A stretch of DNA of 64,000 bases from an uncultured Alphaproteobacteria bacterium (GTDB taxonomy: Bacteria > Pseudomonadota > Alphaproteobacteria > RF32 > CAG-239): positions 73,481 through 137,480 of the forward strand of contig CALXUM010000003.1 in assembly GCA_944391685.1 (NCBI GenBank). Direction: 5' to 3'. This document shows positions 1,009 through 22,312 of this stretch, piece by piece (the first letter of the stretch is position 1; each line of letters opens with the position of its first letter). A program made the position numbers and the translations under genes. A model generated the notes under the pieces. It was not told the origin of the DNA, ran no database searches, and was given only the letters and a program-made list of their open reading frames with translations.

Positions 1009-1393
1009 TTTTCTAACTCCTTGATTTTATTAAATTATCCTTACATATTCTATACTGACATACCGTTGGTAAAACGCAAGTACTTTTTAGAAAAATATTA
1101 CTGTTTTTCAATAAGTTAGGCTGTTTTAAGGTAACAATTTATTGCGAAAATAGAATTTTTCATGTACAAAAGAATGAATTAATTATGGCTTTTTATTTTG
1201 ACAAAATTTAATTATTAATTAGTTTGTAGTTACAAGAAGTTAATATTTGCTGATTTGATTGCATTCAAGTTTAAATATTGTTTGATAGGCTTTTATTAGG
1301 TTTTCAAAAGTCAAAATTGCAGCGTGAGGTATTGACATTTAAGTCTTTTGTTAATAAGCTAATGCACATTCGTATAGCTAAAAAAATACCACA

Positions 1394-2392: not shown

Positions 2393-2401
2393 GGAGTTAT
2401 C

Positions 2402-3232: not shown

Positions 3233-3244
3233 GAAAACTCCTCC

Positions 3245-3273
3245 AGAAAAAAGCCCTTGATAGGGCTTTTTTC
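3245..3273. terminator. bidirectional rho-independent terminator between convergent operons
   Basis: Hairpin AAGCCCT-tgat-AGGGCTT flanked by an A-run upstream and a T-run downstream. Confidence 0.6.
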
Positions 3274-3280
3274 TTAGGTG

Positions 3281-4153
3281 TTACTTTTTCTCAATAAGAA
3301 TCGTATAGCAAGCTGGTCGCACAGCCAGACGTTTATCAGCAAGAGTGAAGTTTTGTAAATCCATTTCTACCTCTTTTATAGTGGAGTTCCATTTATCTTC
3401 ACTACAATTATTAAATTCACCCTCAAGATGAAAGTTTAGAAATATTTCAAGAGCTTCTTCCATTGAGTCATAATATATTGGATCGCCAAGTAAGTGTTCA
3501 ATCTGATAATTAATTAGGTTTTGACTTTTTAAAATTTCTAAAGAATCTTTTATAGCCTCTAGAGATAAGCTTAATTTATTGCCTCGGTCATAAACGTACG
3601 ACTTTTTAGCCCACTGCTTCATTAGGATTTTTTGTTCATCAGACTGGGAATCGAAGTGAATGATAAAAAATTTACCATTATTGTTTAAGTTGTTTTCAAT
3701 AAATTTTTTTAGTATGTTATGAATATGTGATTTTCCCTGTTCTTCAGTTTTAAAGCGTTCAAGATGCTGGTGAACAGAATGAGAAAAACTCCATAAACTA
3801 AAACAAAAGTCATAATTTTCATTACAACTTTGCATATAATTGAGACTATCACTCAAAATTGCATTATGAATGGCATAGTTTTTACGAGAATAGTCTAACA
3901 TTTCAGTGCTCAAATCTAAAATATCTAAATCAGACTGAGGATATCTTTTTAAAAATTGTATAGTGCCGCGACCTGTTCCACAACCAAACTCCATCGCTTT
4001 GAAAGGAGTTGATATTTTTTTTAGAACGTTATCAAAAATTTCTATATCCGTTATTCCTGAAAAAGAATAAGTTTTAAGTAATTTTATATAGTAATCAGGA
4101 GGTAAATAATCTTCACGCTTCCTTTTCATCATAAAAGTTTTAAAGTTTTTCAT
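3281..4153 (-). CDS. class I SAM-dependent methyltransferase
   Basis: 290 aa. Motif I 'AMEFGCGTGRGTIQFL' and 'DILDLSTEML'. Last gene of the minus-strand three-gene operon. Confidence 0.7.
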   Translation of the reverse strand: MKNFKTFMMKRKREDYLPPDYYIKLLKTYSFSGITDIEIFDNVLKKISTPFKAMEFGCGTGRGTIQFLKRYPQSDLDILDLSTEMLDYSRKNYAIHNAILSDSLNYMQSCNENYDFCFSLWSFSHSVHQHLERFKTEEQGKSHIHNILKKFIENNLNNNGKFFIIHFDSQSDEQKILMKQWAKKSYVYDRGNKLSLSLEAIKDSLEILKSQNLINYQIEHLLGDPIYYDSMEEALEIFLNFHLEGEFNNCSEDKWNSTIKEVEMDLQNFTLADKRLAVRPACYTILIEKK

Positions 4154-4160
4154 TTTTCAC

Positions 4161-5183
4161 CTAAAATTTTAAGGATAAATCGCTAATATTTAATGTTGCT
4201 TCAATTCCATATGGCAAGGTCATCATTGGTTCAGTATGCCCAAAGTCCATACGAGAAATAATTGGTAGCTCAGGATGCCCAAACTCTTTGGCGACAATTC
4301 TCAAGGCCATTTCATCAAAAGAATCTAACATAGCCATATCATTAAAAAATTCTCCTGGGCGTCCAATCATTATTCCTTTAATTCTATCAAAACAACCCAT
4401 CAAACCGTAGTTTCTAAGACATTTCATAAAATAATTACTACCTAAGTTTATATCGGAGAGCTCTAAAAATAAAATAGCTCCATCAAAATCCGATTTATTA
4501 AAGAAATAATCTGTACCTTTTAACTGTTCTAAGCTTTCAATACATCCACCTATTAAATGACCGCGAACATTTTGACAACCTTGTAATAATTTAGGTGGAC
4601 AAGATTTGTTTAATTTTCTTTTGATTTTTTGATTATCAGGATTGCTCCAATCTAAGAATTCATTAGTCCATCCGGTTTGATTGGGATAAAATATATCGCA
4701 ACTATCATCACAAATCATTTTTTTTAAGCACTCATAAGAATATGGCTGCATTCCTCCATTTTCTGCAAAACCAGCCATAACAGTTGGTCCATAATAAGAA
4801 GTAATGCCAAGTTTATATAGAAAGACGTGAATAGCAGTTGCATCTGAGTATCCTAAAAAAATTTTAGGATTTTGTTTTATTTTTTCTATGTCTAGATATT
4901 TTAAAAATCTAACGCTATCATTACCACCAATATTACAAATAATTGCTTTTATATCCTTATCTTCTACCGCTTTCATAAAGTCTTCAGCTCGCCCTTCCGG
5001 ATGATCCTGTAACCATGCGTGAGATTTTAAGGAATTTGGCATTTCCACAACTTCAACATTAAATTTTTTTTTCAATTCTTCGATGCCCGCCTTATACCTT
5101 TCCGGAAAGATAGAGGCTGTTCCAAAAGAAATGGATATTGTTGCAACTTTATCACCTTTTTTTAATTTATTTGGTATAATCAT
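4161..5183 (-). CDS. S66 family serine peptidase (LD-carboxypeptidase / microcin C7 immunity MccF-like)
   Basis: 340 aa. 'RAEDFMKAVEDKDIKAIICNIGG', nucleophile motif 'GYSDATA', 'LFLELSD', and C-terminal 'DFGHTEP' (Ser/Glu/His triad context). The size matches the MccF-type subgroup. Confidence 0.75.
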   Translation of the reverse strand: MIIPNKLKKGDKVATISISFGTASIFPERYKAGIEELKKKFNVEVVEMPNSLKSHAWLQDHPEGRAEDFMKAVEDKDIKAIICNIGGNDSVRFLKYLDIEKIKQNPKIFLGYSDATAIHVFLYKLGITSYYGPTVMAGFAENGGMQPYSYECLKKMICDDSCDIFYPNQTGWTNEFLDWSNPDNQKIKRKLNKSCPPKLLQGCQNVRGHLIGGCIESLEQLKGTDYFFNKSDFDGAILFLELSDINLGSNYFMKCLRNYGLMGCFDRIKGIMIGRPGEFFNDMAMLDSFDEMALRIVAKEFGHPELPIISRMDFGHTEPMMTLPYGIEATLNISDLSLKF

Positions 5184-6573
5184 GAAATTTCTCCAAAATG
5201 GATGTATTTATCAAGCCCTGCTTATGCGTATTATTTTCTCTCTTTAAACTTGGAGCAACCGCGGAGATTGCTGTTGAAATTATAGCATACCTATTTTTTA
5301 TAGCATTTATATCGTAATTTTCTTTTGAGAATGCCTTCATATCATCAATAGCCCATTGCTCAATCGTCGATAAGACTTTATTGACTCTACCTTCTCTTAA
5401 GTGATTCTTAATTATTTGGTAATCTTCCGATTGAGGGGCAATATAATTATGGTTCTCAAAAACAGATAACCTATGAAAGTATTTTCTGAAATTTTTATAA
5501 GTCCCATTTAAAAATTGTTTATAACTATCTTCTGTTAATTTGTAATCTTTAATTTTATCAGGAACTCTTGAGGCGATAAACAGACGAACTTTACTCAATT
5601 CATCAGGAGTATAGCTGTCTTGCATTAAAATTGAGGCATCATTATCTTGTGTTAGGCAAAAACCACGAGCGGCAAATTTTATATTAAATTTTGATACATT
5701 AAAACCTTTATTGAAAATTGTTGGCATCATCAAAGAATAATAAGGTAAAATATTTTTGCCAAAATATGAAATCATTTTAACATTCTTAATATCATTAGCA
5801 ACATTTTCTGGTTTAGAAGACACTGCCAGCAATTTTGAAACCATAGAATCATACCATAAATAAATACTTTTTTCTTTATCTATTGGCATTTGTCTTCCAT
5901 AATTATTTCTTGTGAATGTCCAACAATCAAAATCTTTATTGTAAATATTTTGTATATTTGGAATAATATTTGATGTTGTATCCTGCTGTTCCACAAGATA
6001 TTTTAAAAAATCTGTCCTTGGAAGTAATAGGCCCCATTGCATATCCTGTCGTATTTCAACATTATTACTACCACATAATTTACAGACAAAATCTTCTTGT
6101 AATAGTTCTTCAATAGAAGAATGTTTTTTTAGTCGTCCCTCTTTTTGAGTTGTAATTTCACATTCTGATTTGGATAGGTCTTCATGGCAATCTTGACAAT
6201 AAAAAGAATAATCCTGCGTTTTAACTAATAAGCCATTTTTGTATAATTCACCTATAGAGTATTCAACAAATTCGTTCATTTTGGAATTATCAGAATCAAT
6301 ATATAGGTCAGGTTCAATGCCAAATTTAGATAAAGTTTGTCTGAACTCTTTTTTGCAATCAGTTATATATTGGGATTTGTTTTTAATGTGTCGCATAGCT
6401 CGGTATGCGTGCTTGCCATAAACATCAACTCCTGCAATCATTTGGCTTTCCTCACCAAATGATTTTAACATTTTATTTAATATGTCGGCAGGCAAATATG
6501 TGCTAGATATATTTGTATATCTAATTTTGGCAGGTATAAAAACATTTGCAGTTGTAATTAGATATTTAGACAT
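5167..6573 (-). CDS. methionyl-tRNA-synthetase-like paralogue with degenerate HIGH and KMSKS motifs
   Basis: 468 aa, collinear with the MetRS core: 'YLITTANVFIPAKIRYTNI' sits where 'PYANGxxHxGH' is expected, followed by a CxxC...CxxC knuckle region, 'IYLWYDS', and 'YFGKNILPYYSLMMPTIF'. 'DNDAS' occupies the KMSKS position. Overlaps the next gene by 17 nt. Confidence 0.65.
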   Translation of the reverse strand: MSKYLITTANVFIPAKIRYTNISSTYLPADILNKMLKSFGEESQMIAGVDVYGKHAYRAMRHIKNKSQYITDCKKEFRQTLSKFGIEPDLYIDSDNSKMNEFVEYSIGELYKNGLLVKTQDYSFYCQDCHEDLSKSECEITTQKEGRLKKHSSIEELLQEDFVCKLCGSNNVEIRQDMQWGLLLPRTDFLKYLVEQQDTTSNIIPNIQNIYNKDFDCWTFTRNNYGRQMPIDKEKSIYLWYDSMVSKLLAVSSKPENVANDIKNVKMISYFGKNILPYYSLMMPTIFNKGFNVSKFNIKFAARGFCLTQDNDASILMQDSYTPDELSKVRLFIASRVPDKIKDYKLTEDSYKQFLNGTYKNFRKYFHRLSVFENHNYIAPQSEDYQIIKNHLREGRVNKVLSTIEQWAIDDMKAFSKENYDINAIKNRYAIISTAISAVAPSLKRENNTHKQGLINTSILEKFHDYTK

Positions 6574-6731
6574 TTAAGCCTTAACTGTTTTGTTGTAAGA
6601 TACTCAAAAATACTATAATAAACCCAAAAAAGCAATAATAAAATTGCCAATAAAACCTCTGAATGACTTGATTTATTAAGATTTTACCGTTAGCATAACC
6701 TAGTTAATTTTATATTTAGAAGGTAGCAAAA

Positions 6732-8669
6732 ATGGCGGAAAATATTGAGATTAAAAAGGTTGACGGCAAAAGTTTGGATATTGAGGCGGCTGATAAAGAA
6801 AAATTAAAAGCCGTGTTTCCGCAATGTTTTAGTGAAGGCAAACTGGATATAGACAAGTTGTTGTCTTTGTGTGGTGAATATATAGACAACGATTTTGAGA
6901 AATACAAGTTTGAATGGAAAGGCAAATCCGAGTGCTATAAAATTGCCGGTAAGCGTTCAACAGGAACTCTCCGCCCATGTGTGCAAGAAAGTGTGGATTT
7001 TGAAAATACCAATAATCTGTATATTGAGGGCGATAATTTAGAAGTCTTGAAGCTCTTGCAAAATGCTTATTATCGTAAGGTTAAGATGATTTATATAGAT
7101 CCGCCGTATAATACCGGTAATGACTTTGTTTATGAAGATGACTTCAAAGATCCTTTGGCAAAATATAAGGAAATTACATCGCAAACAACCAAATCTAACC
7201 CCGAAACTATGGGCAGATATCACACAAACTGGTTGAATATGATGTATCCTAGATTGCGTTTGGCGGCTAATTTGCTTCGTGATGATGGTGTGATTTTTAT
7301 TTCTATTGATGATAATGAAGTTACAAATTTGAGAAAACTTTGTGATGAAGTCTTCGGTGAGGAGAATTTTGTTGGTTTGTTTACTATTCAAAGTAATCCT
7401 AGAGGCTCACAAAATAGTAAATTTTTATCTTATGTACATGAATATGTTTTAATGTATGCAAAAAGTATGGATTGCTTAGAAATAAAAGGCGTTGAAAAAG
7501 ATGAAGGTTCTATATCTGAATATTCATTAAAAGATGATAATGGTAGGATGTATCGTCTTTTAGGATTAAGAAAAAGAGGCGGTGCATGGAGAAAGGAGGA
7601 TAGACCTAATATGTTTTATCCTGTTTTTGTAAATCGCGAGACGCATGCAGTATCTTTAACAAAAATGAATGATGCGGATATTGAAGTGATTCCTCAAAGA
7701 CCTACTGGTGAGTTGAGTAGATGGACATGGGGAAAAGATAAATTTATTCAAGAAATAGATAAAGTTGTAGCCAAAAAAGTTAATAGAACTGGGGAGCCAG
7801 ATGCGTGGGATATATTTAGAAAAGATTTTATAGATAATGATAATGGTGAGATTAAAACTACAAAAATAAAAACTATTTGGATTGAAAAAGAAACAAATTA
7901 TCAAAATGCAAAAAATGAAATAAAAGAACTCTTTGGTAATTCAGAAATTTTTGATTTTCCTAAGCCGATTTATGTAGTAAGTAGACTTGCATCAATGCTG
8001 TTCACTGATGATACAGATATAATTCTAGACTTTTTCTCTGGTTCAGCAACCACAGCCCATGCTGTTATGCAAATGAATGCTGATGATCAAATAAAACGTC
8101 AATTTATTATGGTCCAACTTCCTGAATTATGCAACGAAAATTCACAAGGAGCGAAAGCCGGTTATAAAAATATTTGTGAAATCGGTAAAGAACGTATCCG
8201 CCGTGCTGGAGCTAAGATTAGAGCAGAACATCCCGAAGTTGATACGGGATTTAAGGTTTTCAAATTAGATACTTCAAATCTCGTAAAATGGGACGATACG
8301 CCGATTTTAGATAATAACACCCAAGATTTGTTTACTCGTATGAACAATATGGTTGAAAGTATCAAAACAGACCGAACGGAATTAGATGTTGTTTATGAGG
8401 TTATGTTAAAACTCGGTATTCCGGTTACTTACAAGATTTTTGAAACTCAAGTAAATGGCAGAAAGGTATATTCAATCGGTGAAGATGGTTTGGTTTTGGT
8501 CTGCTTGGATAAATCAAACGGCGGAATTACACCGGAAGACATAACTGCAATGTGTGATTTGGCTCCTGCCAAAATTGTTGCCGCTGAAAATGCTTTCAAA
8601 GATGACGTTGCCCTCTCTAACGCATATTATATCAGTAAAGACAAAGGTATTGAAATAGAGCTGTTGTAG
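6732..8669 (+). CDS. mod: type III restriction-modification DNA methyltransferase (Mod, N6-adenine)
   Basis: 645 aa. 'MIYIDPPYNTGNDFVYEDDF' (DPPY motif IV), 'FFSGSATTAHAVMQ' (motif I), and overall type III Mod layout. Confidence 0.9.
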   Translation: MAENIEIKKVDGKSLDIEAADKEKLKAVFPQCFSEGKLDIDKLLSLCGEYIDNDFEKYKFEWKGKSECYKIAGKRSTGTLRPCVQESVDFENTNNLYIEGDNLEVLKLLQNAYYRKVKMIYIDPPYNTGNDFVYEDDFKDPLAKYKEITSQTTKSNPETMGRYHTNWLNMMYPRLRLAANLLRDDGVIFISIDDNEVTNLRKLCDEVFGEENFVGLFTIQSNPRGSQNSKFLSYVHEYVLMYAKSMDCLEIKGVEKDEGSISEYSLKDDNGRMYRLLGLRKRGGAWRKEDRPNMFYPVFVNRETHAVSLTKMNDADIEVIPQRPTGELSRWTWGKDKFIQEIDKVVAKKVNRTGEPDAWDIFRKDFIDNDNGEIKTTKIKTIWIEKETNYQNAKNEIKELFGNSEIFDFPKPIYVVSRLASMLFTDDTDIILDFFSGSATTAHAVMQMNADDQIKRQFIMVQLPELCNENSQGAKAGYKNICEIGKERIRRAGAKIRAEHPEVDTGFKVFKLDTSNLVKWDDTPILDNNTQDLFTRMNNMVESIKTDRTELDVVYEVMLKLGIPVTYKIFETQVNGRKVYSIGEDGLVLVCLDKSNGGITPEDITAMCDLAPAKIVAAENAFKDDVALSNAYYISKDKGIEIELL

Positions 8670-8675
8670 GGGGAA

Positions 8676-9338
8676 ATGATGAAAAAACTAATAAAATACT
8701 TTTTAATTTTAATATTTCTAATTTTTATATTAAGTTTTTGGGGTGTTTCCGTAGATCCTATTTGGCTTTCTAATATAAAGTGTTCGTTTGAACAAAACAC
8801 TATTTCTTTTTTTGATTTTATTATAGATACAGGAAATTCAATTAGTTTAGTTTTTGCTGTTTTAATTTTATGTTGCTTATTTAAATCTGAGATCTCTACT
8901 TTGATAAAATCTATATCTCAAAAAATATCAGAAATAAAAGTTTTAAGAATTAATCAGTGGCAATTAGAAACACTAGAAAAAGTTGAAAAAGAAGCTGAAA
9001 AGATACCTCATAAAACGATAAAAATAAATAACAGACAGCCCATAGATAGGTTTATGCACTCATGGATTAACTTTGAAAAAATATTTATGAAAGGATTAAA
9101 TCAATTTAATATAAGAACTGCTCTCTATGAAAGGTACAAATCGGGATTATTTGTTAAAGATGAATATGAATTTTTACTATTTATACTTAGGACAAGAAAT
9201 CAAGTTTTTCACGGTGAAAATATCTTTATATCTGATGAAGTTTATTTACAAATGTCTGATTTTTTAGATAGTTTAAGCATTATTTTGGAATATAAATGGA
9301 AAAATGAAGATCAAAAACGAAAAATAAGCAAAAAATAA
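8676..9338 (+). CDS. membrane-anchored protein with putative C-terminal HEPN-like domain
   Basis: 220 aa. Hydrophobic segments 'LIKYFLILIFLIFILSFWGV' and 'ISLVFAVLILCCLF'. C-terminal helical part contains 'LRTRNQVFHGE' (R-N-x3-H, fits the HEPN Rx4-6H signature). Starts 7 nt after the mod stop. Confidence 0.45.
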   Translation: MMKKLIKYFLILIFLIFILSFWGVSVDPIWLSNIKCSFEQNTISFFDFIIDTGNSISLVFAVLILCCLFKSEISTLIKSISQKISEIKVLRINQWQLETLEKVEKEAEKIPHKTIKINNRQPIDRFMHSWINFEKIFMKGLNQFNIRTALYERYKSGLFVKDEYEFLLFILRTRNQVFHGENIFISDEVYLQMSDFLDSLSIILEYKWKNEDQKRKISKK

Positions 9339-9396
9339 TAAAAACTATTTTCTTATGATTCACACCAAAAATAAATGAGGTTTATAAATAATACCG

Positions 9397-10032
9397 ATGG
9401 ATATAGTAAGCATAATTAATCAAATATCTTTCGCAGATGCCGGTAAAAGCCTTTTAAAAAAGTATCAAAATAAAAAAAAGGAAAACTTGCGTTGGGTTAT
9501 TGAAAAAGAAATGCGCCAAGGAGATTTTTCTCGTGTTAATGAAGATGATATGATTGCTATTTTCTACAGATTGACTCGCGAAGCATTAGAAGGTACGGCT
9601 ATATGCAATTTACGACTTATGGCACGTTTGATTTGTGGGTTAAATGAAAAAGGACAATTAACGGCAAATAATTTTCAAAAACACGCAAAAATATTAGCAG
9701 ATTTAGATGAAAATGAAATTGTACTTCTTGCAACAACTATAAAGTACCTAGAGAAGAATAACGATTCTTTTGAAATATATGATAGAGCATTAGATAATGC
9801 TTTAATAGAATTATTTGGCGAAAAACAAGGTAAAATTAATATATTATCCTATCATTCTTTACTGACAGGATTGCAACGTACAGGTTTGGTTGTAAAAAAT
9901 GGCATGGGGTCAAGCAAGTACAAATATGGACACGAATTTTCGTTAACTCCAAAATTTAAGGAATTGGTTGATTTATTTCCTAACTGGGAAGATATTGCAA
10001 CTTACTCTTGTGTAGGTAATAAAGAAAGATAA
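9397..10032 (+). CDS. hypothetical protein (no recognised domain)
   Basis: 211-aa ORF on the same strand, between the HEPN-like gene and the Mrr-like gene. Only a 4-nt gap to the next gene. Confidence 0.5.
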   Translation: MDIVSIINQISFADAGKSLLKKYQNKKKENLRWVIEKEMRQGDFSRVNEDDMIAIFYRLTREALEGTAICNLRLMARLICGLNEKGQLTANNFQKHAKILADLDENEIVLLATTIKYLEKNNDSFEIYDRALDNALIELFGEKQGKINILSYHSLLTGLQRTGLVVKNGMGSSKYKYGHEFSLTPKFKELVDLFPNWEDIATYSCVGNKER

Positions 10033-10036
10033 GATA

Positions 10037-10936
10037 ATGACAAATACCGGAATTGAATATGAACTTTTTGTGCAAAATTTAATGCAAGCTATACTTAATT
10101 CTGAAAATCAAGGCGGGCAGAAAAACATTAAAGTAAGACACAATGAAAAAATCGCTGATAAATTTGGTGTTGAACGGCAGTTTGATGTACTCTGGGAATA
10201 TGAATTAGGGGGAATCATCTATAATACAGTTATTGAATGTAAAGATTATAATTCCCCCATATCCATTGAAAAAATAGACGCTTTAATTGGTAAATTAAAA
10301 GATTATCCAAATTTTAGAGGAATTATTGCGACCACTAAAGGTTATCAATCAGGAGCTAAAGAAAAAGCCAAAAATAGTGGTATCGAATTATTGTGTGTTA
10401 GAAAATCTGATGATAGTGATTGGGTTAATGAAAAAGGGCAGCCCTTAGTAAGAAAAATATCCTTAAATATTACGATATGTCCATCGCCTGTGATTATAAA
10501 ATGTAAGACTTTTCTTGATAAGAAATACCTTGACGAAAACAATATAGATATAGAACAGATTAATATTTCAGATCCGTTAAATACTGAAGTTTTTATAGAA
10601 GATAAAACTAAAAATGAAAAATATTCCTTATATGAATTACAACAAAAAATTGCAAATAAAAATGATGATTATGGACTTCATGAAAAAGATATTGAATTTG
10701 AGGATGCTTATATTGTTAGGCAAAATATCAGACTAAAACTAAAAAAGCTTCATATTATATATTCAATAGCTCAACCATGTACTGAAACAATAACAATAGA
10801 CGGAGCAGATTATATTCTTGGTGTTGTGGAATATTTAAATCAAGGTAAGAAAAAGACTGTTTTTAATACTCCATATGAAGGAACACAAGTAAAAAATGAA
10901 GCCCTTCCCAATAAGTCTTTGGAGAAAAATTCATGA
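10037..10936 (+). CDS. Mrr-cat / PD-(D/E)xK restriction-endonuclease-like domain protein with unknown C-terminal domain
   Basis: 299 aa. N-terminal 'GIEYELFVQNLM...', 'RQFDVLWE...' and 'VIECKDY...IDALIGKL...GIIATTKGYQSGAKEKA...GIELL' follow the Mrr_cat pattern (E, D, ExK). Its stop overlaps the res start (ATGA). Confidence 0.65.
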   Translation: MTNTGIEYELFVQNLMQAILNSENQGGQKNIKVRHNEKIADKFGVERQFDVLWEYELGGIIYNTVIECKDYNSPISIEKIDALIGKLKDYPNFRGIIATTKGYQSGAKEKAKNSGIELLCVRKSDDSDWVNEKGQPLVRKISLNITICPSPVIIKCKTFLDKKYLDENNIDIEQINISDPLNTEVFIEDKTKNEKYSLYELQQKIANKNDDYGLHEKDIEFEDAYIVRQNIRLKLKKLHIIYSIAQPCTETITIDGADYILGVVEYLNQGKKKTVFNTPYEGTQVKNEALPNKSLEKNS

Positions 10937-13900
10937 AACTAAAGTTTAAGAATCAAGATTTTCAAAATGATGCTGTAGAAACGGTGGCAAGGCTTTTCAA
11001 AGGGCAAGAAAAGGCTAATACGACTTTTTCCATCTCGGATAATTCGGCTCAATATAATTTGCTTGAAAACGAGTTTGGCTTAGGCAACCGTCTTTTGATT
11101 GATGCCAAAACATTACAAGAAAACTTAAACACCGTGCAAAAGGCTCATGCCTTGCCTCAAACCGAAATTGATTCAGCTCAGGCTTTTCCTATCTCCGTTG
11201 AAATGGAAACCGGTACTGGAAAGACTTTTGTATATACCAAAACCATATTAGAGTTAAACAATCTTTACGGATTTACAAAATTTATTATTGTTGTGCCGAG
11301 TGTGGCTATTCGTGAAGGTGTTTATAAGTCTTTGCAAGTTACCGAAGATTATTTCAAAAACCAATATAATCGCCCTTATCACTACTTTATTTATAATTCT
11401 GCCAAACTCAATGCCGTTAAGAGTTTTGCAACTTCTGATAATATTGAGATTATGATTATTAATATTGACGCGTTCAAAAAAGCCGAAAATGTCATTAATC
11501 AAGAACAAGACAAATTAAACGGCGAAACGGCAATGCGTTATATTCAAAACACTAATCCGGTGGTGATTATTGATGAGCCGCAAAGTGTTGATAATACACC
11601 AAAAGCCAAAGAGGCGATTGCTTCACTTAATCCGCTTTGTGTCTTGAGATATTCGGCGACACACCGAGAAAAGCAAAATCTGGTTTATCGTTTGACGCCG
11701 GTTGATGCTTACCAAATGGGCTTAGTCAAACAAATCAGCGTGATTTCCAATTCAATCCTTAATGATTCAAACAAGCCTTATATTGCTCTGAAGGCTGTGT
11801 CTAATGCTAACGGATTTACCGCCAAGATAGAGATAGACGTTGAAAATAAAGAGGGACTGGTTAGCCGTAAGACAATTACGGTTAAACCGAATGATGATTT
11901 GTTTATTCTCTCCGGACACCGCGAACTTTATGAAGATTATGTCGTTTCCGGTATTGATTGCACTCCGGGGTATGAATGTATTGAGTTTTCTAATGCAGAA
12001 ACGGTTAATCTTGGAAAAGCGATTGGCTCCGTTGATGAAAATGTGATAAAACGTGCTCAAATCTACCACACTATAAAAACGCATTTAGATAAAGAATTAC
12101 GCTATTTTGATAAAGGGATTAAGGTTTTGTCGTTGTTCTTTATTGATGAGGTTAAAAAATATCGAACGGAAGACGGCGGCAAAGGAATTTATGCCCAGAT
12201 GTTTGAAGAATGTTACAACGAACTGATGGCTAAACCTAAATATGCCGTTTTGAAAGAAAAGTTTAATACGGATGTTGCAAAAGCTCATAACGGCTATTTC
12301 TCTCAAGATAAAAAAGGAAAATATAAAGACACCAAAGGCGACACGCTTGCAGATGATGATACATACAATACCATTATGAAAGACAAAGAGTGGTTGTTGT
12401 CTTTTGATTGTCCGTTAAGGTTTATCTTTTCTCACTCTGCCCTGAAGGAAGGTTGGGATAACCCGAATGTTTTTCAGGTTTGCACGCTTATCGACCAAAA
12501 ATCCGTGTTTACCTGTCGTCAAAAAGTCGGTCGTGGTTTGAGATTATGCGTTAATCAAAATGGTGAACGTATTGAAGACAAAGACATCAACATTCTGCAC
12601 GTGGTGGCAAATGAGAGTTTTGCCGAGTTTGCTCAAAAACTGCAAACCGAAATTGAAACTGAAACCGGCGTTAAGTTTGGCGTACTTGAATTGAGTATGC
12701 TGATTGGCTTGACTTATGATGAGGAAAAAGAAGTTCAAAAAGAAATTTCGCCCGAGATTGCAACGATTGTGATTGAAGATTTACAAAAATCAGGCGTTAT
12801 TGATGAACAAGGCTCTCTCAAAAATGAAGTGGCTCCGGAAGAAATTCAACTGACGAGTATTCCCGAGGCTATAAAACAAGAAGTTGTCAAAACCATAAAG
12901 AACGAAAAAACAGTTTCGGTTGCGGCTCTGGCCAGCAAAACTTATACTGAAAAAGTCGTTGAGAAAAAAGTTATTGATTATCACGAAGCCGCTCAAATGA
13001 TTGAAGACCTGAAAGAAAGCAAGGTTATTGATAAAAACGGCAAAATCAAAGATACAATGAAAGCTCAGCTTGCCGCAGGAACACTTAATTTGAACGAAAG
13101 GTATTCTAAAGCGGCTCAAAGAGCGATGTTGCAGGCCTTAAACAAAGCCGATACCAAGACAATTATCCGAGACGCAAGTAAAGAAGTTACGGTTCGACTG
13201 AAAAAGCAAGCCATAATCAGCCCCGAATTTTTGGAGCTTTGGAATAAAATCAAGCAAAAAACGACTTATCGGGTTAATTTTGACTTAGATGTCTTAGTGG
13301 CTAACTGTATTAAAGACTTAAAAGAAATGCCGGCTATATCTACCGCCCGATTAATTAGTCAGACTGCTGATATTGAAATTCAAAAATCAGGCGTTTCGCA
13401 TATTGAAAGAGCCATGGTTTCAACCAATTTAGAGCGAAACTATGATGTTTTGCCCGATATTTTAAGGTTGATATCCATAAAAACCTTATTAAAACGCTCA
13501 ACCATCAATAAAATTATTCAAGAAAGCGGTCGTGGAACGGACTTCCTCAAAAATCCGCAAGAGTTTTACGAAAAGACTTTAGAAATTATCAAACGAAACC
13601 GCCACAAATTGGCTATTGACGGTATTAAATATGTAAAACTTGCCGGTGAGGAATATTATATTCAAGAGATTTTTGATAGTTCCGAACTTATTGCCAACCT
13701 TGATAAAAACGCGGTGGCCGTGGAAAACAGCATATATGATTATGTGATTTATGACAGTAGTGTTGAAAATAAATTTGCCGTTGCTCTTGATAATGATCCT
13801 GATGTTAAGATGTTTTTCAAAATTCCGAGCCGCTTTACCATTGAAACACCTATCGGACCCTATAACCCCGATTGGGCGGTTTATTTGGAAAAGAACGGCG

Positions 13901-14073
13901 AACAGAAACTTTACTTTGTCTTAGAAACCAAAGGTACTGATTTTATTTATGGTTTGCGACCGGAAGAAGCCTTAAAGATTCATTGCGGATATGAACATTT
14001 TAAGGCTCTTGATAATGTTACATTCTCCGAAAATCCGGTTAAAGACTGGAGAGAATTTAAGCAAACGGTATGA
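10933..14073 (+). CDS. res: type III restriction enzyme Res subunit (helicase-nuclease)
   Basis: 1046 aa. N-terminal 'LKFKNQDFQNDAVETVARLF', Walker A 'METGTGKTFVYTKT', 'VVIIDEPQ', helicase C region 'HSALKEGWDNPNVFQ', and C-terminal 'YNPDWAV...LYFVLETKG' PD-(D/E)xK. Confidence 0.9.
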   Translation: MKLKFKNQDFQNDAVETVARLFKGQEKANTTFSISDNSAQYNLLENEFGLGNRLLIDAKTLQENLNTVQKAHALPQTEIDSAQAFPISVEMETGTGKTFVYTKTILELNNLYGFTKFIIVVPSVAIREGVYKSLQVTEDYFKNQYNRPYHYFIYNSAKLNAVKSFATSDNIEIMIINIDAFKKAENVINQEQDKLNGETAMRYIQNTNPVVIIDEPQSVDNTPKAKEAIASLNPLCVLRYSATHREKQNLVYRLTPVDAYQMGLVKQISVISNSILNDSNKPYIALKAVSNANGFTAKIEIDVENKEGLVSRKTITVKPNDDLFILSGHRELYEDYVVSGIDCTPGYECIEFSNAETVNLGKAIGSVDENVIKRAQIYHTIKTHLDKELRYFDKGIKVLSLFFIDEVKKYRTEDGGKGIYAQMFEECYNELMAKPKYAVLKEKFNTDVAKAHNGYFSQDKKGKYKDTKGDTLADDDTYNTIMKDKEWLLSFDCPLRFIFSHSALKEGWDNPNVFQVCTLIDQKSVFTCRQKVGRGLRLCVNQNGERIEDKDINILHVVANESFAEFAQKLQTEIETETGVKFGVLELSMLIGLTYDEEKEVQKEISPEIATIVIEDLQKSGVIDEQGSLKNEVAPEEIQLTSIPEAIKQEVVKTIKNEKTVSVAALASKTYTEKVVEKKVIDYHEAAQMIEDLKESKVIDKNGKIKDTMKAQLAAGTLNLNERYSKAAQRAMLQALNKADTKTIIRDASKEVTVRLKKQAIISPEFLELWNKIKQKTTYRVNFDLDVLVANCIKDLKEMPAISTARLISQTADIEIQKSGVSHIERAMVSTNLERNYDVLPDILRLISIKTLLKRSTINKIIQESGRGTDFLKNPQEFYEKTLEIIKRNRHKLAIDGIKYVKLAGEEYYIQEIFDSSELIANLDKNAVAVENSIYDYVIYDSSVENKFAVALDNDPDVKMFFKIPSRFTIETPIGPYNPDWAVYLEKNGEQKLYFVLETKGTDFIYGLRPEEALKIHCGYEHFKALDNVTFSENPVKDWREFKQTV

Positions 14074-14077
14074 TAAA

Positions 14078-16642
14078 ATGGGCTATTCTCGGTTACAATC
14101 ATCATTTGAGGCGGTATGGAAGGCTAGAAAATTAGCCGGTTTAGTTCATGATGATAATTTTTTGCCGGTTTATGCTTCTGCCAATATCAAAATTTTGCCT
14201 TATCAAATTGCCGCGGCCAGATTTGCCTTGCGTTCGGGCAATCTAAAAGGTTGTATTTTGTGTGATGAAGGTAGTTTGGGAAAAACCTACGAGGCGTTGT
14301 TGGTTGTTTCCCAGCGCTGGTATGAAGGAAATGAACATATTTTAATTGTTTTGCCGCAAAATTTAATATCACAATGGCTAAGCAAACTCACGGAAGAATT
14401 TAATTTACCGCTTATTGACTGGGCAGAATATACGCAAGAAAGCCAAGGTGTATGCTTAACAACTTATGAAAATGTTGTTAAAAACGCCGATAAAATTGCC
14501 TCTATTAATTGGAATTTGGCTGTTTTTGATGAAGCTGATTTTCTCTTTAAACCCGACAATAAGTCCGTTATGGTGATTAAAAACGCAATCGGAAATGCTT
14601 TCAAACTTCTTTTGACACCAACGCCGATTACTATGAGTATTATGGATATTTATGGTCTTATTCATTTTATTGATGAAACATTATTGCCGGACGCAGACAG
14701 TTTTTATAAACGCTATTTCAGAAAGCCTGAAAATTATCCCGAATTATCATCTTGGGTATCGCAATTTGCTTTTCGTACCTTAAAAAAACAGGTCGAACCG
14801 TATGTTAATTTTACTAAACGGTTGCCTTTTGTGTTAAATTACTCACCTCAAGATGAAGAAAAACAACTTTATGACTTGGTAGCCAAATATTTATCTTTGC
14901 CAAACAAAACCGCTTATCCGCAAATGGATAATTACCAACTGGCTTTACAGTTTTATCATACTTTGTCATCTTCTTCACAAGCCTTTGGCCAAATGCTTGA
15001 AGCTCCGATTGAACGTGCCGAAAATGAGGAAAAAGTATTTTTGCAAGAAATACAAAAACTTGCCTTAAAGATTAAACTTTCTGCCAAAATGCAAGAATTA
15101 TTAACGGCATTAAAGACCATTTTTGCACATCTAAGATCTCGCAAGGAAACACAAAAAGTTCTTATATTTGTAGAAAACTCAACCACATTGACGATATTGG
15201 CTGATTTGTTGCAAGCAGAACAATATACGGTTATCACACACACCGATAAAAATGCTTTGGAAAAATTCCGAGAAGATAAAAATATTCAGATTTTCTTGAC
15301 TAACGATACAACAGCCAAAGGACTTGATATTGAGTATTGTCCGGTGGTTATAAATTATGATTTGCTTTATAATGCCGTTGAAATGGAGCAAAGAATCTGT
15401 CGTTGCCACCGCCAAGGACAAAATTCTGATGTTTTGGTTGTTAATTTGCTTAGTAAGGAAAATATGTCTGATGTGCGTATTTTGGAGCTGATTAACAAAC
15501 GAACATTACAATTTCAGGGGATTTTTGGAATGTCCGATGATATTGTCGGCAATTTTGATGAAAAATTATCTGATGTTTTGCAAAAACGGCGGACTTTATC
15601 CGATATTCAAAATGATTTTATGACGAATATGAATATCAATAAAAATGCAAACGCTCAAATTGTATCTGAGGCGGAAAGCGTCTTATTTACCACTTTTACC
15701 AAAGATATTGCCGAAAAAGTTCAAGTTTCACCAAAATATATTCAAGAACAAGCCGAATGTATTAATCAAGATTTATGGGAAGTCGTAAAGTTTTATTTTG
15801 AAAAGTATTTTCCTCAATATATTATAGATAACACCAACAAAACCTTAACCTTATCTGAAAATTGTCCGCCACCTTGCTTGTTTTATTATTCAAGCGGAAA
15901 CAGAAATGTGCCGTACACCGGAAAGAAATGCTACGGTATGTCTAAAGATTTTAAGCCGGCTTCCCATCGTATTACCTTAACCTCAATTTTGGTGAAAGGA
16001 ATTTTGGAAGAAATTAAATGTTCTGAAAACGGAAAAATTAAGATAAACGGCAATGTTCCTTGTTGTGAAATTTCTATGTATAATGTGGTGTTGCGGCAAA
16101 ATAAAACTTTTTTAAGAACGTATGATATTTTGTTTGGGCAATATGAAAACAGAGATATCTTATCTCAAGATGAATGTGAAAAGATTTTGGCTCAACCTGT
16201 TGAAAGTTGTGAAGAAACAGGACAGGAAACGGCTTATTGGCTTAAGTTGATGTCTTCTTCCAATGTAAAGTTACCAAATATTATTGAAGAAACCATAAAA
16301 AAAGATTATCTCAAAGAGCAAGAAAAGTCTTTTAATGCGGATATTGATATCATCAAGATGAAAGCAAGTCGGCAAAAATCTATTTTGGAGCAAAATATTA
16401 ATATTGCTAAAGCCGAAGTAAAGAAAATCAAAGATAAATTGTCTTGTGCCACCGATAGACTGGAAGAATTAAAAATACAAAAACAATTAAATTGCCAAGA
16501 AAAAAATTTAAGAAAAAAAGAAGAAGGTCTGTTTTTAGAACAAATGCAGATTGAGACCGCCACTGAGGAAGAAATAGAAAAACTTAGTAAGGTTGATGAA
16601 ATATTTGTAAACAATTCGTTAATATTTAGAATAAGATATTAA
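14078..16642 (+). CDS. SNF2-family helicase with long C-terminal extension
   Basis: 'ILPYQIAAARFAL', 'CDEGSLGKTYEA' (motif I), 'VFDEADF' (II), 'LLLTPTPITMS' (III), and 'AKGLDIEYCPVVINYDLLYNAVEMEQRICRCHRQGQ' (V-VI). ATG at 14078 lies 4 nt after the res stop. The track start at 13991 would overlap res. Confidence 0.85.
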   Translation: MGYSRLQSSFEAVWKARKLAGLVHDDNFLPVYASANIKILPYQIAAARFALRSGNLKGCILCDEGSLGKTYEALLVVSQRWYEGNEHILIVLPQNLISQWLSKLTEEFNLPLIDWAEYTQESQGVCLTTYENVVKNADKIASINWNLAVFDEADFLFKPDNKSVMVIKNAIGNAFKLLLTPTPITMSIMDIYGLIHFIDETLLPDADSFYKRYFRKPENYPELSSWVSQFAFRTLKKQVEPYVNFTKRLPFVLNYSPQDEEKQLYDLVAKYLSLPNKTAYPQMDNYQLALQFYHTLSSSSQAFGQMLEAPIERAENEEKVFLQEIQKLALKIKLSAKMQELLTALKTIFAHLRSRKETQKVLIFVENSTTLTILADLLQAEQYTVITHTDKNALEKFREDKNIQIFLTNDTTAKGLDIEYCPVVINYDLLYNAVEMEQRICRCHRQGQNSDVLVVNLLSKENMSDVRILELINKRTLQFQGIFGMSDDIVGNFDEKLSDVLQKRRTLSDIQNDFMTNMNINKNANAQIVSEAESVLFTTFTKDIAEKVQVSPKYIQEQAECINQDLWEVVKFYFEKYFPQYIIDNTNKTLTLSENCPPPCLFYYSSGNRNVPYTGKKCYGMSKDFKPASHRITLTSILVKGILEEIKCSENGKIKINGNVPCCEISMYNVVLRQNKTFLRTYDILFGQYENRDILSQDECEKILAQPVESCEETGQETAYWLKLMSSSNVKLPNIIEETIKKDYLKEQEKSFNADIDIIKMKASRQKSILEQNINIAKAEVKKIKDKLSCATDRLEELKIQKQLNCQEKNLRKKEEGLFLEQMQIETATEEEIEKLSKVDEIFVNNSLIFRIRY

Positions 16643-16647
16643 AAAAA

Positions 16648-16675
16648 TCCCCACAGAAAATAAATTCTGTGGGGA
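16648..16675. terminator. bidirectional rho-independent terminator
   Basis: Perfect 11-bp stem TCCCCACAGAA-aataaa-TTCTGTGGGGA, with an A-run before and a T-rich tail after. Lies between the convergent SNF2 and XRE genes. Confidence 0.65.
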
Positions 16676-16692
16676 GATTTTGTAAACATGTT

Positions 16693-17199
16693 CTAATCAA
16701 TATTTTTATCCAAGCTTTCAGATAAATTATAAGAAGTCGTTTTTGATAAGGAGATTATCATATCACGAATTGATTGTTGTAATTTGCAATTTTTAATTTT
16801 TTCTAAAGCTATTATTAGTTCGATATTGTTTTCCTTAAACAAAGGATCAGATTCTGTATTAATCAAAACATTTTCATTACTAATTCCATAAAGCCTGCGA
16901 GGGCTATATTTATCAATTTTTTCATCAATTCCTTCGTAAAAATAATTAACTGGCACTTTTAATACCAAAGCCATATCCCAAATACGGCTTGCTCCCATCC
17001 GGTTAATTCCTTTTTCATATTTTTGAATTTGTTGGAAGGTAACACCCAACAATGAAGCCAGCTTGGCTTGTGAAATTTTTAACATTTCTCGGCGTAATCT
17101 GAGACGATTTCCTACATAGACATCTATAGGGTTGGCCTCACCATTTATCATTCTTCCCCTAGATTTTATAACATTAGTCCTAATTTGATTATGATTCAT
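16693..17199 (-). CDS. XRE-family helix-turn-helix transcriptional regulator
   Basis: 168 aa. 'VGNRLRLRREMLKISQAKLASLLGVTFQQIQKYEKGINRMGASR' is a canonical Cro/C1-type HTH. Confidence 0.8.
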   Translation of the reverse strand: MNHNQIRTNVIKSRGRMINGEANPIDVYVGNRLRLRREMLKISQAKLASLLGVTFQQIQKYEKGINRMGASRIWDMALVLKVPVNYFYEGIDEKIDKYSPRRLYGISNENVLINTESDPLFKENNIELIIALEKIKNCKLQQSIRDMIISLSKTTSYNLSESLDKNID

Positions 17200-18709: not shown

Positions 18710-20938
18710 CTAAGTTGAATGCACTCTTGAATCTTCAATAACCGCCGTTAGTTCTACCTTATCTGAACGCGGCCTTATTGCTGTTATTCTGGCAAATATG
18801 CTCCATTTGTCGTTAGTTCCAAAAGCAAAATGAGTTCTTTCTCTATTTGTATCAGTTGAAATTTCAATATCAGGCAAAGTATCTAAAATTATTTCAGTAG
18901 AAACTTCGCCTTGATTGACGAGATAAGGACCGGCAAGAGAGCCATCTTTCTTACGCAAAGCCAAATAATGCTCTTGTCCGTCTTTGAAGGTAACAGGTTC
19001 AGATAAAGTGAGCTTGAGGCCTTCTTGTTTCAAGATTTCTCCGCCTTGTCCCCATTGAGCCATGTCGTGGGTAATGGCAATTAAATCTCCGTAACTTGGG
19101 ATTAATCCCTCTAGCTCCGTCGTGAAAGTTACAATTCTTCGGCGGTAACGATTGGCTAAAGCCATATAAGTTGCTTCTCTTAGTGCTTGCTCTTTATTGG
19201 TACAGCCAAAAAGTTCGACAGTTGCAATTTTATCGGAGCTTGAAGCTTCAAAACTTCCGGTAACTTCTGAGGTTTTCCAAGTTTTCTCAGAAAAATATTC
19301 TATAGTAACGCTGTCTGCCGTATCTTCGGATGGCATAAGATATTGTATAGAAAGTGAATCTTTTACAATATTACGAGGTCCAAACAAAGCAACCGGTATG
19401 GTTTTAGGATCATCTCTAACAAATCGGACAATACCGCCTTGAATAAATGCAACAGCTCTTCCGACTTTTGCCGTTCTTGACAGGGCTTCATATACGGTTA
19501 ATTTACTATCAAATACCGCGTTAAAGGTATCGCCCCTTGCACTCCAAACTCTATCCAAATCGTATAAAGCCTGTAAATCAATGGCGTTGTCTTTGAGATT
19601 AGCACCGTATGAGGCTTTCAAAATATCAGCCAAAGCCCAAGCGATTGAACGTGTCGGCTCAACAGAAGACGACCAACCCGAAAGCGGCGACCAAGTCTTG
19701 AGCTTGCGTGTTACAATGCAATTCACTAAGCGGCTTGACCTTTGTGAAAGATTGTCCGTTGCCTTCATTATAATTGCCAGCAAGGTTACGTTTCCGTAGT
19801 TTTTTTCTGAAACGATATATCCTTTAGCAGAAGACCAACGGATTTCATGACCGGCACGTGATGATGTATCTTTGTCATCAATACGAGTAGCTCGGATTTC
19901 ATAACGCCCTTCCGGAACATCATAAGTATAAGTTTTGTATATTCCATTATGTGTAGCTTCGGTAATGCTTTCTGAACCTAAAGTATACCAATTTTCCAAA
20001 GCTGTATCATTATCATCTATAGAACGAACTTCTATTTTCCACTGAATTGTTTTGGAAGATAGTTCACCATTATCATTCGCATAATAACAACCACGCTGGA
20101 ACGCCACATCAATTTCTATCTTATTTATTTTGGTTTCTGCCGGATTTAAGACAAAATGACCACAATACTCATTTTTTAACAATTCCTGACCAGCTATCTC
20201 GGCAGAAGTTACAACATCTTCAATAAACAATGTGTTCTTTTCTTGTGGATTTATGACTTGATAAGTTATTTCCTTAAAAGAACTAATCGGTGTATCCTCA
20301 ATGCGGATTTGTTCAACATCATATTCGCCTTGTCCGATACAATGGAGCTGATAAACATATTGTTCGTTATCAATATAGCGATAATAAGGTTGACTGGCAA
20401 AATCGGGATAGATTAAGTGGCGACCGTAAATTACCGGTATCGGATTACCAAGCCGTGCTTCATTTCCTTGAGCCTGCAAAGAATATGTCGGACTTTGTGT
20501 ATAAGCGGAAGACGTCATACCATTAAGAGCCGGTTTGGGGGTTGGAATAAATGTATTAACAAGAATTCCACCAGCCATAGAAACACCAGCCGCGGCCACA
20601 CCACCCCAAACGGCACCGTAAGCCGCTCCGACAGCTCCGCCGGTATAAACAGTGGCAACAATTAAAGCCACGGTTAATACAGCTTTAATCGGATTAGATC
20701 CGCCACCACCACCGCCCAAAGGCAAGGCAACAAAACTGACAACATCTTGAGATGATAAAAGGCTAGACCAATCTTTACGAAGTCTGGCAACGCCATTTAC
20801 AAAACAAATTACCGGACGAGATAAATCAATCTTTTGAGTATTTACAATTTGCCAAATTGTTTGATTTTTGGGTAAGGTTTTGCTTATCCGTCCTTTGTTT
20901 AGGCTAAACGGATTTGTAAAGTAATTAAAATAAGTCAT
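18710..20938 (-). CDS. tail tip / host-specificity protein (lambda gpJ-like, with gpI-like Gly/Ala-rich N-terminal segment)
   Basis: 742 aa. Directly downstream of an NlpC/P60 gpK-like gene. Has an N-terminal 'LPLGGGGGGSNPIKAVLTVALIVA...' hydrophobic segment. Size and position match the last tail gene before lysis. Confidence 0.65.
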   Translation of the reverse strand: MTYFNYFTNPFSLNKGRISKTLPKNQTIWQIVNTQKIDLSRPVICFVNGVARLRKDWSSLLSSQDVVSFVALPLGGGGGGSNPIKAVLTVALIVATVYTGGAVGAAYGAVWGGVAAAGVSMAGGILVNTFIPTPKPALNGMTSSAYTQSPTYSLQAQGNEARLGNPIPVIYGRHLIYPDFASQPYYRYIDNEQYVYQLHCIGQGEYDVEQIRIEDTPISSFKEITYQVINPQEKNTLFIEDVVTSAEIAGQELLKNEYCGHFVLNPAETKINKIEIDVAFQRGCYYANDNGELSSKTIQWKIEVRSIDDNDTALENWYTLGSESITEATHNGIYKTYTYDVPEGRYEIRATRIDDKDTSSRAGHEIRWSSAKGYIVSEKNYGNVTLLAIIMKATDNLSQRSSRLVNCIVTRKLKTWSPLSGWSSSVEPTRSIAWALADILKASYGANLKDNAIDLQALYDLDRVWSARGDTFNAVFDSKLTVYEALSRTAKVGRAVAFIQGGIVRFVRDDPKTIPVALFGPRNIVKDSLSIQYLMPSEDTADSVTIEYFSEKTWKTSEVTGSFEASSSDKIATVELFGCTNKEQALREATYMALANRYRRRIVTFTTELEGLIPSYGDLIAITHDMAQWGQGGEILKQEGLKLTLSEPVTFKDGQEHYLALRKKDGSLAGPYLVNQGEVSTEIILDTLPDIEISTDTNRERTHFAFGTNDKWSIFARITAIRPRSDKVELTAVIEDSRVHST

Positions 20939-20942
20939 TGTT

Positions 20943-21347: not shown

Positions 21348-21350
21348 ATA

Positions 21351-21710: not shown

Positions 21711-21766
21711 TTTAATTTCTCCTTATAATAAATAAAGATACTTCTAATATTTTACATATTCAACCT

Positions 21767-22309: not shown

Positions 22310-22312
22310 AAA

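Follow-up and report, generated by a model that had tools for sequence, protein, structure and literature searches.

Do six closely packed genes on a contig of an uncultured Alphaproteobacteria bacterium make up one composite defence machine, or do they hold a smaller system that has taken in additional genes? The question is raised by positions 6732–16642 of a 64,000-nucleotide stretch of DNA (contig CALXUM010000003.1 of assembly GCA_944391685.1, positions 73,481 to 137,480 of the forward strand), which we refer to as the window. A type III restriction-modification (R-M) operon, split by a three-gene insert and followed by an SNF2 helicase gene, had been recognized here from the sequence alone, and the products of all six genes had been proposed to act as a single unit (hereafter the original prediction). 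We favour, with a probability of about 0.7, a three-gene type III restriction system consisting of mod, res and the SNF2 gene, with an exchangeable cargo slot that in the window is occupied by three genes designated X, Y and Z. This reading is carried by the identities of the genes, the linkage of the three core genes, their co-divergence, the turnover of cassettes and the geometry of the junctions, all of which were observed directly. The six open reading frames (ORFs) were found on the + strand exactly where they had been placed, and they are followed by a terminator:

6732–8669, + strand: mod, 645 amino acids (aa), type III N6-adenine DNA methyltransferase
8676–9338, + strand: X (cargo), 220 aa, membrane-anchored, with a C-terminal four-helix domain, HEPN-like (putative)
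9397–10032, + strand: Y (cargo), 211 aa, no recognisable domain, recurs beside Mrr_cat genes
10037–10936, + strand: Z (cargo), 299 aa, Mrr_cat (PD-(D/E)xK) nuclease
10933–14073, + strand: res, 1046 aa, superfamily 2 (SF2) helicase-like ATPase with a C-terminal PD-(D/E)xK endonuclease
14078–16642, + strand: DrmD-like SNF2 helicase, 854 aa, SNF2-rel_dom and Helicase_C
16648–16675, both strands: bidirectional intrinsic terminator, 11-bp stem with 6 G-C pairs and T-runs on both strands

The predicted packing of these genes was confirmed, with successive junctions of 6 nt, 58 nt and 4 nt, a 4-nt ATGA overlap at 10933–10936 formed by the stop of Z and the start of res, and a final gap of 4 nt. The SNF2 ORF has alternative starts at 13991 or 14015; its homologues favour the start just 3' of the res stop. 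As had been claimed, the hairpin at 16648–16675 is the sole strong terminator, other + strand matches within the operon being weak (3 G-C pairs). The tight spacing and the absence of a strong internal terminator suggest that the six genes are co-transcribed. Upstream of mod, a promoter scan of 6574–6731 yielded no match, and a weak TTGATT-17-TAGCAT arrangement at 6668–6696 was noticed by eye alone. The insert, which had appeared to be more AT-rich than mod and res, is indeed so: the GC content is 0.235 for X, 0.311 for Y and 0.291 for Z, as compared with 0.347 for mod, 0.376 for res, 0.338 for the SNF2 gene and 0.360 for the window.

The assignment of mod and res to a type III system holds. 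Mod matches Pfam N6_N4_Mtase (E = 1.6e-31) and the PADLOC model MTase_III (631 bits), and it contains DPPY at residue 123 (motif IV) and FSGSA at residue 435 (FxGxG-type motif I) with a variable region between them. Res matches Pfam ResIII and RE_endonuc, the PADLOC model REase_III (970 bits) and the EcoP15I Res structure (4zcf_C; E = 1.1e-61), with GTGKT at residue 94, DEPQ at 214 and PD...ETK at 979–1000. By these sequence criteria both proteins are subunits of a type III R-M enzyme. Since Res reaches only 348 bits against the EcoP15I-type model, whose curated cut-off is 564, it belongs to a subfamily other than the EcoP15I-type one. The variable target-recognition region of mod (approximately 7373–8003) is unmatched in three close relatives of the locus (L008, L075 and L076), both flanks matching at 91–98%, which fits different target specificities of the window, L008 and L075/L076. 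No simple-sequence tract indicative of phase variation was detected in mod or res, where a repeat scan found just short, low-scoring repeats.

Type III R-M is conventionally regarded as a two-subunit system. In EcoP15I-type enzymes Mod recognizes an asymmetric site and methylates one of its strands, Res undergoes an ATP-driven switch to a sliding state, and cleavage takes place when two complexes coming from inversely oriented unmethylated sites meet. The window shares with the canonical systems EcoP15I and EcoP1I the DPPY and FxGxG-type motifs of Mod, the SF2 ATPase and C-terminal PD-(D/E)xK domain of Res, and the position of mod 5' of res on the same strand. It differs in the 2.26 kb of cargo that separate mod from res and in the conserved SNF2 gene that is attached to them.

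Linkage of the SNF2 gene to type III mod and res in other genomes had been set beforehand as a test by the original prediction, and it was found. In each of the first three contexts sampled, SNF2 homologues with 41–96% identity adjoin a type III mod and res. Scanning a genome collection with the SNF2 alignment produced 67 loci, 40 of which are well flanked (full-length SNF2 gene, at least 7 kb on either side). Both mod and res are present at 39 of these 40, and the remaining locus has a broken mod. The gene order in the 39 is SNF2-mod-res (22 loci), mod-res-SNF2 (14) or divergent (3), and the gap between res and the SNF2 gene usually amounts to 4–30 nt. The hosts include gut Alphaproteobacteria, metagenome-assembled genomes (MAGs) of Gastranaerophilales/Melainabacteria and Clostridia, and a Bartonella plasmid; in MAGs of Chlamydiales and Opitutales the SNF2 gene was seen with mod only, at loci that lack full flanks. 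Moreover, the identities of Res and SNF2 proteins to their window counterparts rise and fall together (Spearman 0.88; n = 54). Thus, mod, res and the SNF2 gene are a conserved three-gene unit.

The converse search, seeded with Res in metagenome contigs, gave 18 fully flanked loci. Seven of them carry the same SNF2 family, even where Res is just 42–46% identical. At six others the helicase is of another SNF2-like type (~1080 aa) and a DUF4391 gene comes next, and in five an SNF2 gene is absent. A third set is found on IncF plasmids of E. coli, Klebsiella and relatives, which encode, in this order, a helix-turn-helix (HTH) protein, a DrmD-like SNF2 protein (653 bits against PADLOC DrmD PDLC02619), a type III methyltransferase (MTase) and a type III restriction endonuclease (REase), the latter two from other Mod/Res subfamilies. 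Taken together, the genome, Res-seeded and IncF sets show that an SNF2 helicase is repeatedly paired with type III R-M, in several lineages of Mod and Res. The viral contig collection gave just three matches, suggesting that this is not typically a phage system.

Could the SNF2 gene nevertheless be a mere neighbour, residing in the same island as a self-sufficient one-gene defence or as a RapA-like housekeeping factor? SNF2 proteins such as HmaA can defend alone (PMC11232893), the wider Res clade includes the five loci devoid of the gene, and at two loci (L018 and L020) res and the SNF2 gene are separated by other genes. Such a chance association is, however, hard to reconcile with linkage at nearly all well-flanked loci, in three gene orders and across phyla, with the co-divergence of Res and SNF2, and with the usually short gap to res. 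In addition, the window SNF2 protein has no recognisable nuclease domain, and the housekeeping genes nearby vary among loci. We therefore regard it as improbable that the gene is a bystander, and we retain it as the third component of the restriction system.

Several loci of these sets show additional peculiarities. The intervening gene is FAD-oxidoreductase-like at L018 (7251–8651) and a second N6_N4 methyltransferase gene at L020 (7340–9550). At L162 (12715–17079), two mod copies are split by a transposase gene and a RhuM gene lies between the SNF2 gene and mod. Four loci look decayed: L024 consists of mod, a gene for a 304-aa protein, Abi_2 and SNF2 with res absent, in L029 mod is broken and res absent, the SNF2 gene of the Bartonella plasmid (L060) is split into two ORFs, and L064 stems from a long-read assembly with many frameshifts. 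The ~1080-aa helicase, which matches the PADLOC model C3a139 ('HKD+Snf2') with 371 bits, is part of a second recurring four-gene set composed of the helicase gene, the DUF4391 gene, type III mod and res (L091, L097, L109, L123 and others); in L109 a GmrSD gene is nested between DUF4391 and mod, and in L123 an AAA_11/12 plus MTES_1575 helicase-nuclease is encoded upstream. The IncF version L163 is the E. coli plasmid pEC316_2 (NZ_CP018955.1), encoding an SNF2 protein of 987 aa, a type III MTase of 1046 aa and a type III REase of 1120 aa. The same gene set is present on more than 15 plasmids of Klebsiella, Citrobacter and Raoultella, the IncF carriers being conjugative, and RefSeq labels the genes just as SNF2-related protein, DNA methyltransferase and DEAD/DEAH box helicase.

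The last gene of the operon encodes, as predicted, an SNF2 helicase with a long extra C-terminal region. The protein contains Pfam SNF2-rel_dom and Helicase_C with intact GKT, DEAD, TPTP and QRxxRxHRxGQ motifs, followed by a further 375 residues. Its best matches are DrmD in PADLOC (261 bits) and DISARM_DrmD_b in NCBIfam (254 bits; cut-off 950), while NCBIfam DISARM_DrmD gives 84 bits (cut-off 610); weak PADLOC matches are BrxHI/HII-like models (84 bits), HmaA (77 bits) and DrmA (49 bits). Judged from these scores, the window helicase belongs to the DrmD_b-like group but is diverged within it. The confident model of the C-terminal 375 residues (predicted local distance difference test, pLDDT, 82.8) shows a helical bundle, a beta-rich domain and a long coiled-coil hairpin. 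No significant counterpart of this model was found among PDB folds, the best match being RapA with E = 3.5e-3 and a TM score of 0.23, which we judged not meaningful; likewise, neither Pfam nor the fold search revealed a nuclease domain in the SNF2 protein. Its homologues number more than 800; of the 120 best listed, most are full-length.

By contrast with this conserved core, the mod-res junction is a hypervariable cargo slot. Starting at the res ATG and continuing past the SNF2 gene, the DNA of L008 is 94% identical to the window, and its slot contains a single gene for a DUF6602/NucC-like nuclease instead of X-Y-Z; homology ends 13 nt past the mod stop, and the res ATG is the precise point at which it returns. 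In L075 and L076, which are 96% identical to the window from 29 nt 5' of Y onward, Y and Z are retained and X is replaced by a gene for a 239-aa protein plus an Abi_C gene. The points of broken homology suggest that cargo is most likely exchanged through recombination within the conserved ends of the two core genes that face the slot, 3' in mod and 5' in res.

Junctions are occupied at 87 of 130 scorable loci (51/61 SNF2-seeded and 36/69 Res-seeded). Adjacency of mod and res is the norm in EcoP15I-type systems; in this clade most junctions are occupied. The slots contain 144 same-strand ORFs in 71 sequence clusters, many of which are without annotation. Bro-N occurs at 17 loci and corresponds to the PADLOC candidate PDC-S13; RhuM (PDC-S05) and KilA-N (PDC-S22) are also represented, as are AbiTii, Abi_C, Abi_2, Abi_alpha, GmrSD_N, TIR_2, OLD-type TOPRIM, AAA_21/AAA_15, Schlafen AlbA_2, GIY-YIG, the YhcG nuclease, YaaC and DUF6602. 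Despite this diversity of content, the packing remains tight: the first cargo gene usually starts 6–13 nt past the mod stop, and at 31 of 45 loci the final cargo gene terminates -4, 0 or +2 nt from the res ATG. The slot is empty at nine SNF2-linked loci, where 11–26 nt separate mod from res.

These observations bear on the claim that the six proteins form one unit in the conserved order mod-X-Y-Z-res. An obligate multi-layer machine, with mutual dependence of a methylase, two helicases and three nucleases, would account for the tight packing on one strand, the ATGA overlap of Z and res and the single strong terminator, and the exact layout of the window is present on four independent contigs. 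It does not explain why nearly all homologous systems lack X, Y and Z, why some loci are free of inserts or why nearly identical res-SNF2 backbones have other inserts. Furthermore, Z stands alone in the slot of L011 and L022, Y is found without Z in L043, and X has no homologue in any other mod-res slot. The proposed order is thus not conserved, Y and Z occur apart or with other partners, and interdependence of all six proteins is the least probable of the explanations considered here.

A further possibility is that the inserts are selfish passengers of homing type or of phage origin, lodged at a site where loss of the mod-res region is counter-selected. This would be in line with cargo GC below that of the core, with GIY-YIG, Bro-N and KilA-N domains, which are common in phages and mobile elements, and with one Y homologue that adjoins recombinases. 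On the other hand, no integrase, transposase or repeat was detected at the borders of the window slot, many of the cargo families are established or candidate defence genes (AbiTii, Abi_2, GmrSD, TIR, OLD), and the junction geometry is conserved. We consider a selfish origin of the cargo very unlikely. The window slot rather has the attributes of embedded cargo, because it lies between core genes, varies among homologous systems and is devoid of mobility genes.

Among the window's own cargo, X is the most elusive. It has no match in Pfam, PADLOC or NCBIfam and no homologue in an index of 5.8 billion proteins; an exhaustive HMMER search of 1.8 billion representatives retrieved just three remote relatives. 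Within this four-member family the motif R174-N-x3-H179 (Rx4H) is invariant. The protein has an N-terminal hydrophobic stretch (residues 7–24), and its C-terminal part is modelled as four helices (pLDDT ~85). Foldseek placed the HEPN structure 2hsb on top (E = 0.87) and four further HEPN toxins among the top 18, all of them non-significant. Profiles of X and Y gave nothing significant against PDB sequences, and hhalign revealed no relation of X to the Abi_C cargo family. Hence, the proposed membrane HEPN protein is backed by the invariant motif but finds no support in Pfam or in significant fold matches, and describing X as a putative HEPN-like membrane protein is reasonable but unproven.

Y has 22 homologues and no significant match in Pfam or PDB; a Pfam scan of the family yielded just sub-threshold Abi_alpha matches in three of 21 members. 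Z, by contrast, is recognizable as the Mrr_cat-type nuclease it had been taken for (Pfam Mrr_cat, 35.5 bits; cut-off 21), with predicted catalytic residues D50...E67-C-K69 and an unassigned C-terminal half. Homologues of Z with 64–75% identity occupy the same slot in L011, L016 and L022. Y precedes an Mrr_cat gene in L075 and L076, and two Y-like genes flank an Mrr_cat gene in L078 and L079, outside any R-M system. This recurrence suggests that Y and Z belong together as a two-gene module of the Mrr_cat nuclease type. Between the window and L075 the Z protein is 100% identical and the adjacent Y 79%, and the variable region of Mod has been replaced, a pattern that points to recent mosaic recombination inside the slot.

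The nature of the cargo invites comparison with PrrC, which lies inside the EcoprrI type IC R-M locus (PMC12707154, PMC3710099). By analogy, the Mod/Res complex might hold the cargo inactive, and the cargo would fire when a phage anti-restriction protein disables the complex. A nuclease embedded in an R-M operon is thus a matter of precedent, X has a HEPN-type motif resembling that of the PrrC nuclease, and operon-preserving junctions, often translationally coupled to res, would link the stoichiometry of cargo and R-M enzyme. Like PrrC, the window cargo includes an abortive-infection-type nuclease gene located between modification and restriction genes. However, PrrC combines an ABC-ATPase and a HEPN anticodon nuclease in one fusion protein and belongs to a type I system, whereas X, Y and Z have no ATPase domain and no cargo with the ABC ATPase domain of PrrC was seen, so that the window does not have a PrrC-type architecture. 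Moreover, Bro-N, KilA-N and RhuM match PADLOC models based on genes nested in BREX, DISARM and type I R-M systems (10.1101/2024.01.29.577857), Y with Mrr_cat is found outside any R-M system, and it is implausible that 71 unrelated clusters each evolved a specific interaction with Mod/Res. Guarding of the cargo by the R-M complex is therefore unlikely, though not to the degree that applies to the other alternatives. Autonomous cargo carried by a three-gene restriction system is favoured, since members of the cargo families are also encoded in other systems and away from R-M genes.

How does the locus relate to named defence systems? DISARM class 1 is encoded by DrmD, DrmMI, DrmA, DrmB and DrmC. 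The window resembles it in combining an SNF2 helicase, an adenine methylase and a helicase/nuclease effector, and the window SNF2 protein is nearest to DrmD models; closer DrmD_b-like proteins (650–700 bits) adjoin type III R-M genes elsewhere. It differs in that the methylase is a type III Mod and the effector a type III Res, with DrmA, DrmB and DrmC absent. DISARM was rejected because scans of the six operon proteins and ten neighbours for DUF1998 (DrmB) and PLD (DrmC) domains found neither, the DrmA model matches only the SNF2 protein, and weakly, and the SNF2 protein remains below the DrmD cut-off. BREX was rejected as well, because no PglZ, BrxC or PglX was found with Pfam or PADLOC and just the BrxHI/HII-like similarity of the SNF2 protein remained. 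In these two respects the original prediction was right.

ARMADA types I/II combine a RapA/BrxHII-like SNF2 ATPase (ArmA), a PglX-like adenine methylase and a YprA-family DExH helicase-nuclease with DUF1998 (10.1101/2025.09.15.676423). The Walker motifs of the SNF2 protein are essential for defence in ARMADA (10.1101/2025.09.15.676423, PMC13463889) and also in ietHAS, whose ietH is DrmD-like (PMC13069673). The window has the same triad of SNF2 ATPase, adenine methylase and helicase-nuclease, but Res is of the ResIII plus RE_endonuc type and Mod is a type III N6_N4_Mtase; the YprA/DUF1998 helicase and the PglX-like methylase are missing, and ARMADA was discarded as an assignment. Hma consists of the SNF2 helicase HmaA, the 5-methylcytosine (m5C) methylase HmaB and the ATPase HmaC (PMC8565338), and 62.7% of Hma systems have embedded genes (10.1101/2024.01.29.577857). 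Here, too, the likeness lies in an SNF2 helicase with a methylase, an ATPase and embedded genes, and the difference in an m5C-type methylase and an ATPase that is not a Res. Neither HmaB nor HmaC was matched, and the HmaA score of the window SNF2 protein is well below its best DrmD match; Hma was discarded on these grounds.

Embedded defence genes are documented in Hma, BREX, DISARM and type I R-M (10.1101/2024.01.29.577857), and HEPN and Abi genes within R-M operons were noted earlier (PMC3710099). The slot of the window clade resembles these cases in that variable same-strand genes are nested among the core genes of a modification system, with PDC-S13, PDC-S22, PDC-S05 and AbiTii as common families; it differs by using one defined junction with conserved coupling geometry. 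Type III R-M was not analysed in the embedding study, the sole 'type III' of which is a DRT type (10.1101/2024.01.29.577857). We found no paper in the open-access literature that treats an SNF2 helicase and type III R-M as a unit, an earlier description elsewhere being possible; a Cronobacter genome paper lists both together on an island without comment. The view that the locus fits no known architecture is accordingly correct insofar as no named system was matched, but it needs qualification, since embedded cargo is familiar and triads of SNF2 protein, methylase and helicase-nuclease are known from DISARM class 1 and ARMADA (10.1101/2025.09.15.676423). The novelty lies in the conserved DrmD-like SNF2 partner of a type III R-M system and in its cargo slot between mod and res, embedding itself being already known.

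We propose the following model. Mod would recognize the target and methylate host sites, and Res would contribute an ATP-dependent switch as well as the nuclease activity by which unmethylated DNA is cut. By analogy with DrmD of DISARM class 1, ArmA of ARMADA and ietH, the SNF2 ATPase would work on DNA in concert with Mod and Res; possibly it clears or remodels protein-bound or replicating phage DNA, or helps to license restriction. Small, unrelated defence-type genes would be swapped into the mod-res junction with the operon packing kept, and X, Y and Z would probably form a second layer of the abortive-infection type, co-expressed with the R-M enzyme from one transcript. It is tempting to extend this model to the entire cross-phylum type III clade, which could be a three-component system with SNF2 as a required partner and with the mod-res junction as a dedicated platform for the exchange of abortive-infection effectors; this extension is tentative, and we give it less than even odds. 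The same reserve applies to the idea that such a system might be the type III counterpart of DISARM and ARMADA with Hma-style embedding.

Several points weigh against a three-gene system with exchangeable defence cargo. Expression and phenotype of the operon are predicted only, and so are the role of the helicase and the participation of X, Y and Z in defence; co-transcription is argued solely from spacing and the terminator scan. X is nearly an orphan, its HEPN assignment is without statistical support, and Y has no recognisable domain. Shared host phylogeny could explain part of the correlation between Res and SNF2, and the Res-seeded loci without an SNF2 gene indicate that the wider Res clade does not need the helicase. 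The SNF2 protein lies far under the curated DrmD cut-off, and this score, together with a C-terminal domain that has no significant structural match, makes the analogy to DrmD and ArmA a weak one. Finally, the comparison loci are almost all metagenome-assembled, so that mis-assembly of a single locus is possible; yet the window layout recurs on the four independent contigs.

If the SNF2 protein is functionally required, it would change the view of how a large type III clade finds or processes foreign DNA, and it would tie type III R-M to the group formed by DISARM, ARMADA and BREX. The clade is widespread in gut bacteria, and IncF plasmids of Klebsiella and E. coli hold the same three-gene arrangement with different Mod/Res subfamilies. 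The mod-res slot, being small and easy to spot, is a convenient source of new candidate defence genes, represented here by its 71 clusters, and guilt-by-embedding thereby reaches type III systems as well. There would be a benefit for annotation pipelines too, since such loci are now reported as type III R-M plus an orphan DrmD-like helicase and hypothetical proteins.

The surroundings of the operon merit a brief description. A gene for an XRE-type HTH protein (16693–17199, - strand) converges on the SNF2 gene and uses the same bidirectional terminator. In the Monoglobus and IncF-plasmid versions (L162, 8704–8907, and L163, 8670–8915) an HTH gene is located directly 5' of the SNF2 gene, and by this placement the XRE-type protein may be a controller protein. 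Homology with all related strains starts at 6726, 6 nt 5' of the mod ATG. Upstream of this point, at approximately 1155–6726, the window contains five genes that are missing from the close relative L008 (compared with L008 1–2372), where the mod module adjoins sequence homologous to window positions 742–1155. The five genes encode a tRNA-synt_2-like protein (332 aa), two S-adenosylmethionine (SAM) methyltransferases, an LD-carboxypeptidase and a MetRS-core-like protein (468 aa). On the other side of the operon, at 18710–25240 (- strand), lies a phage-tail or gene-transfer-agent-like run of genes, which includes those for a 742-aa protein with Phage-tail_3 and FNIII-A_GpJ domains and for an NlpC/P60 protein.

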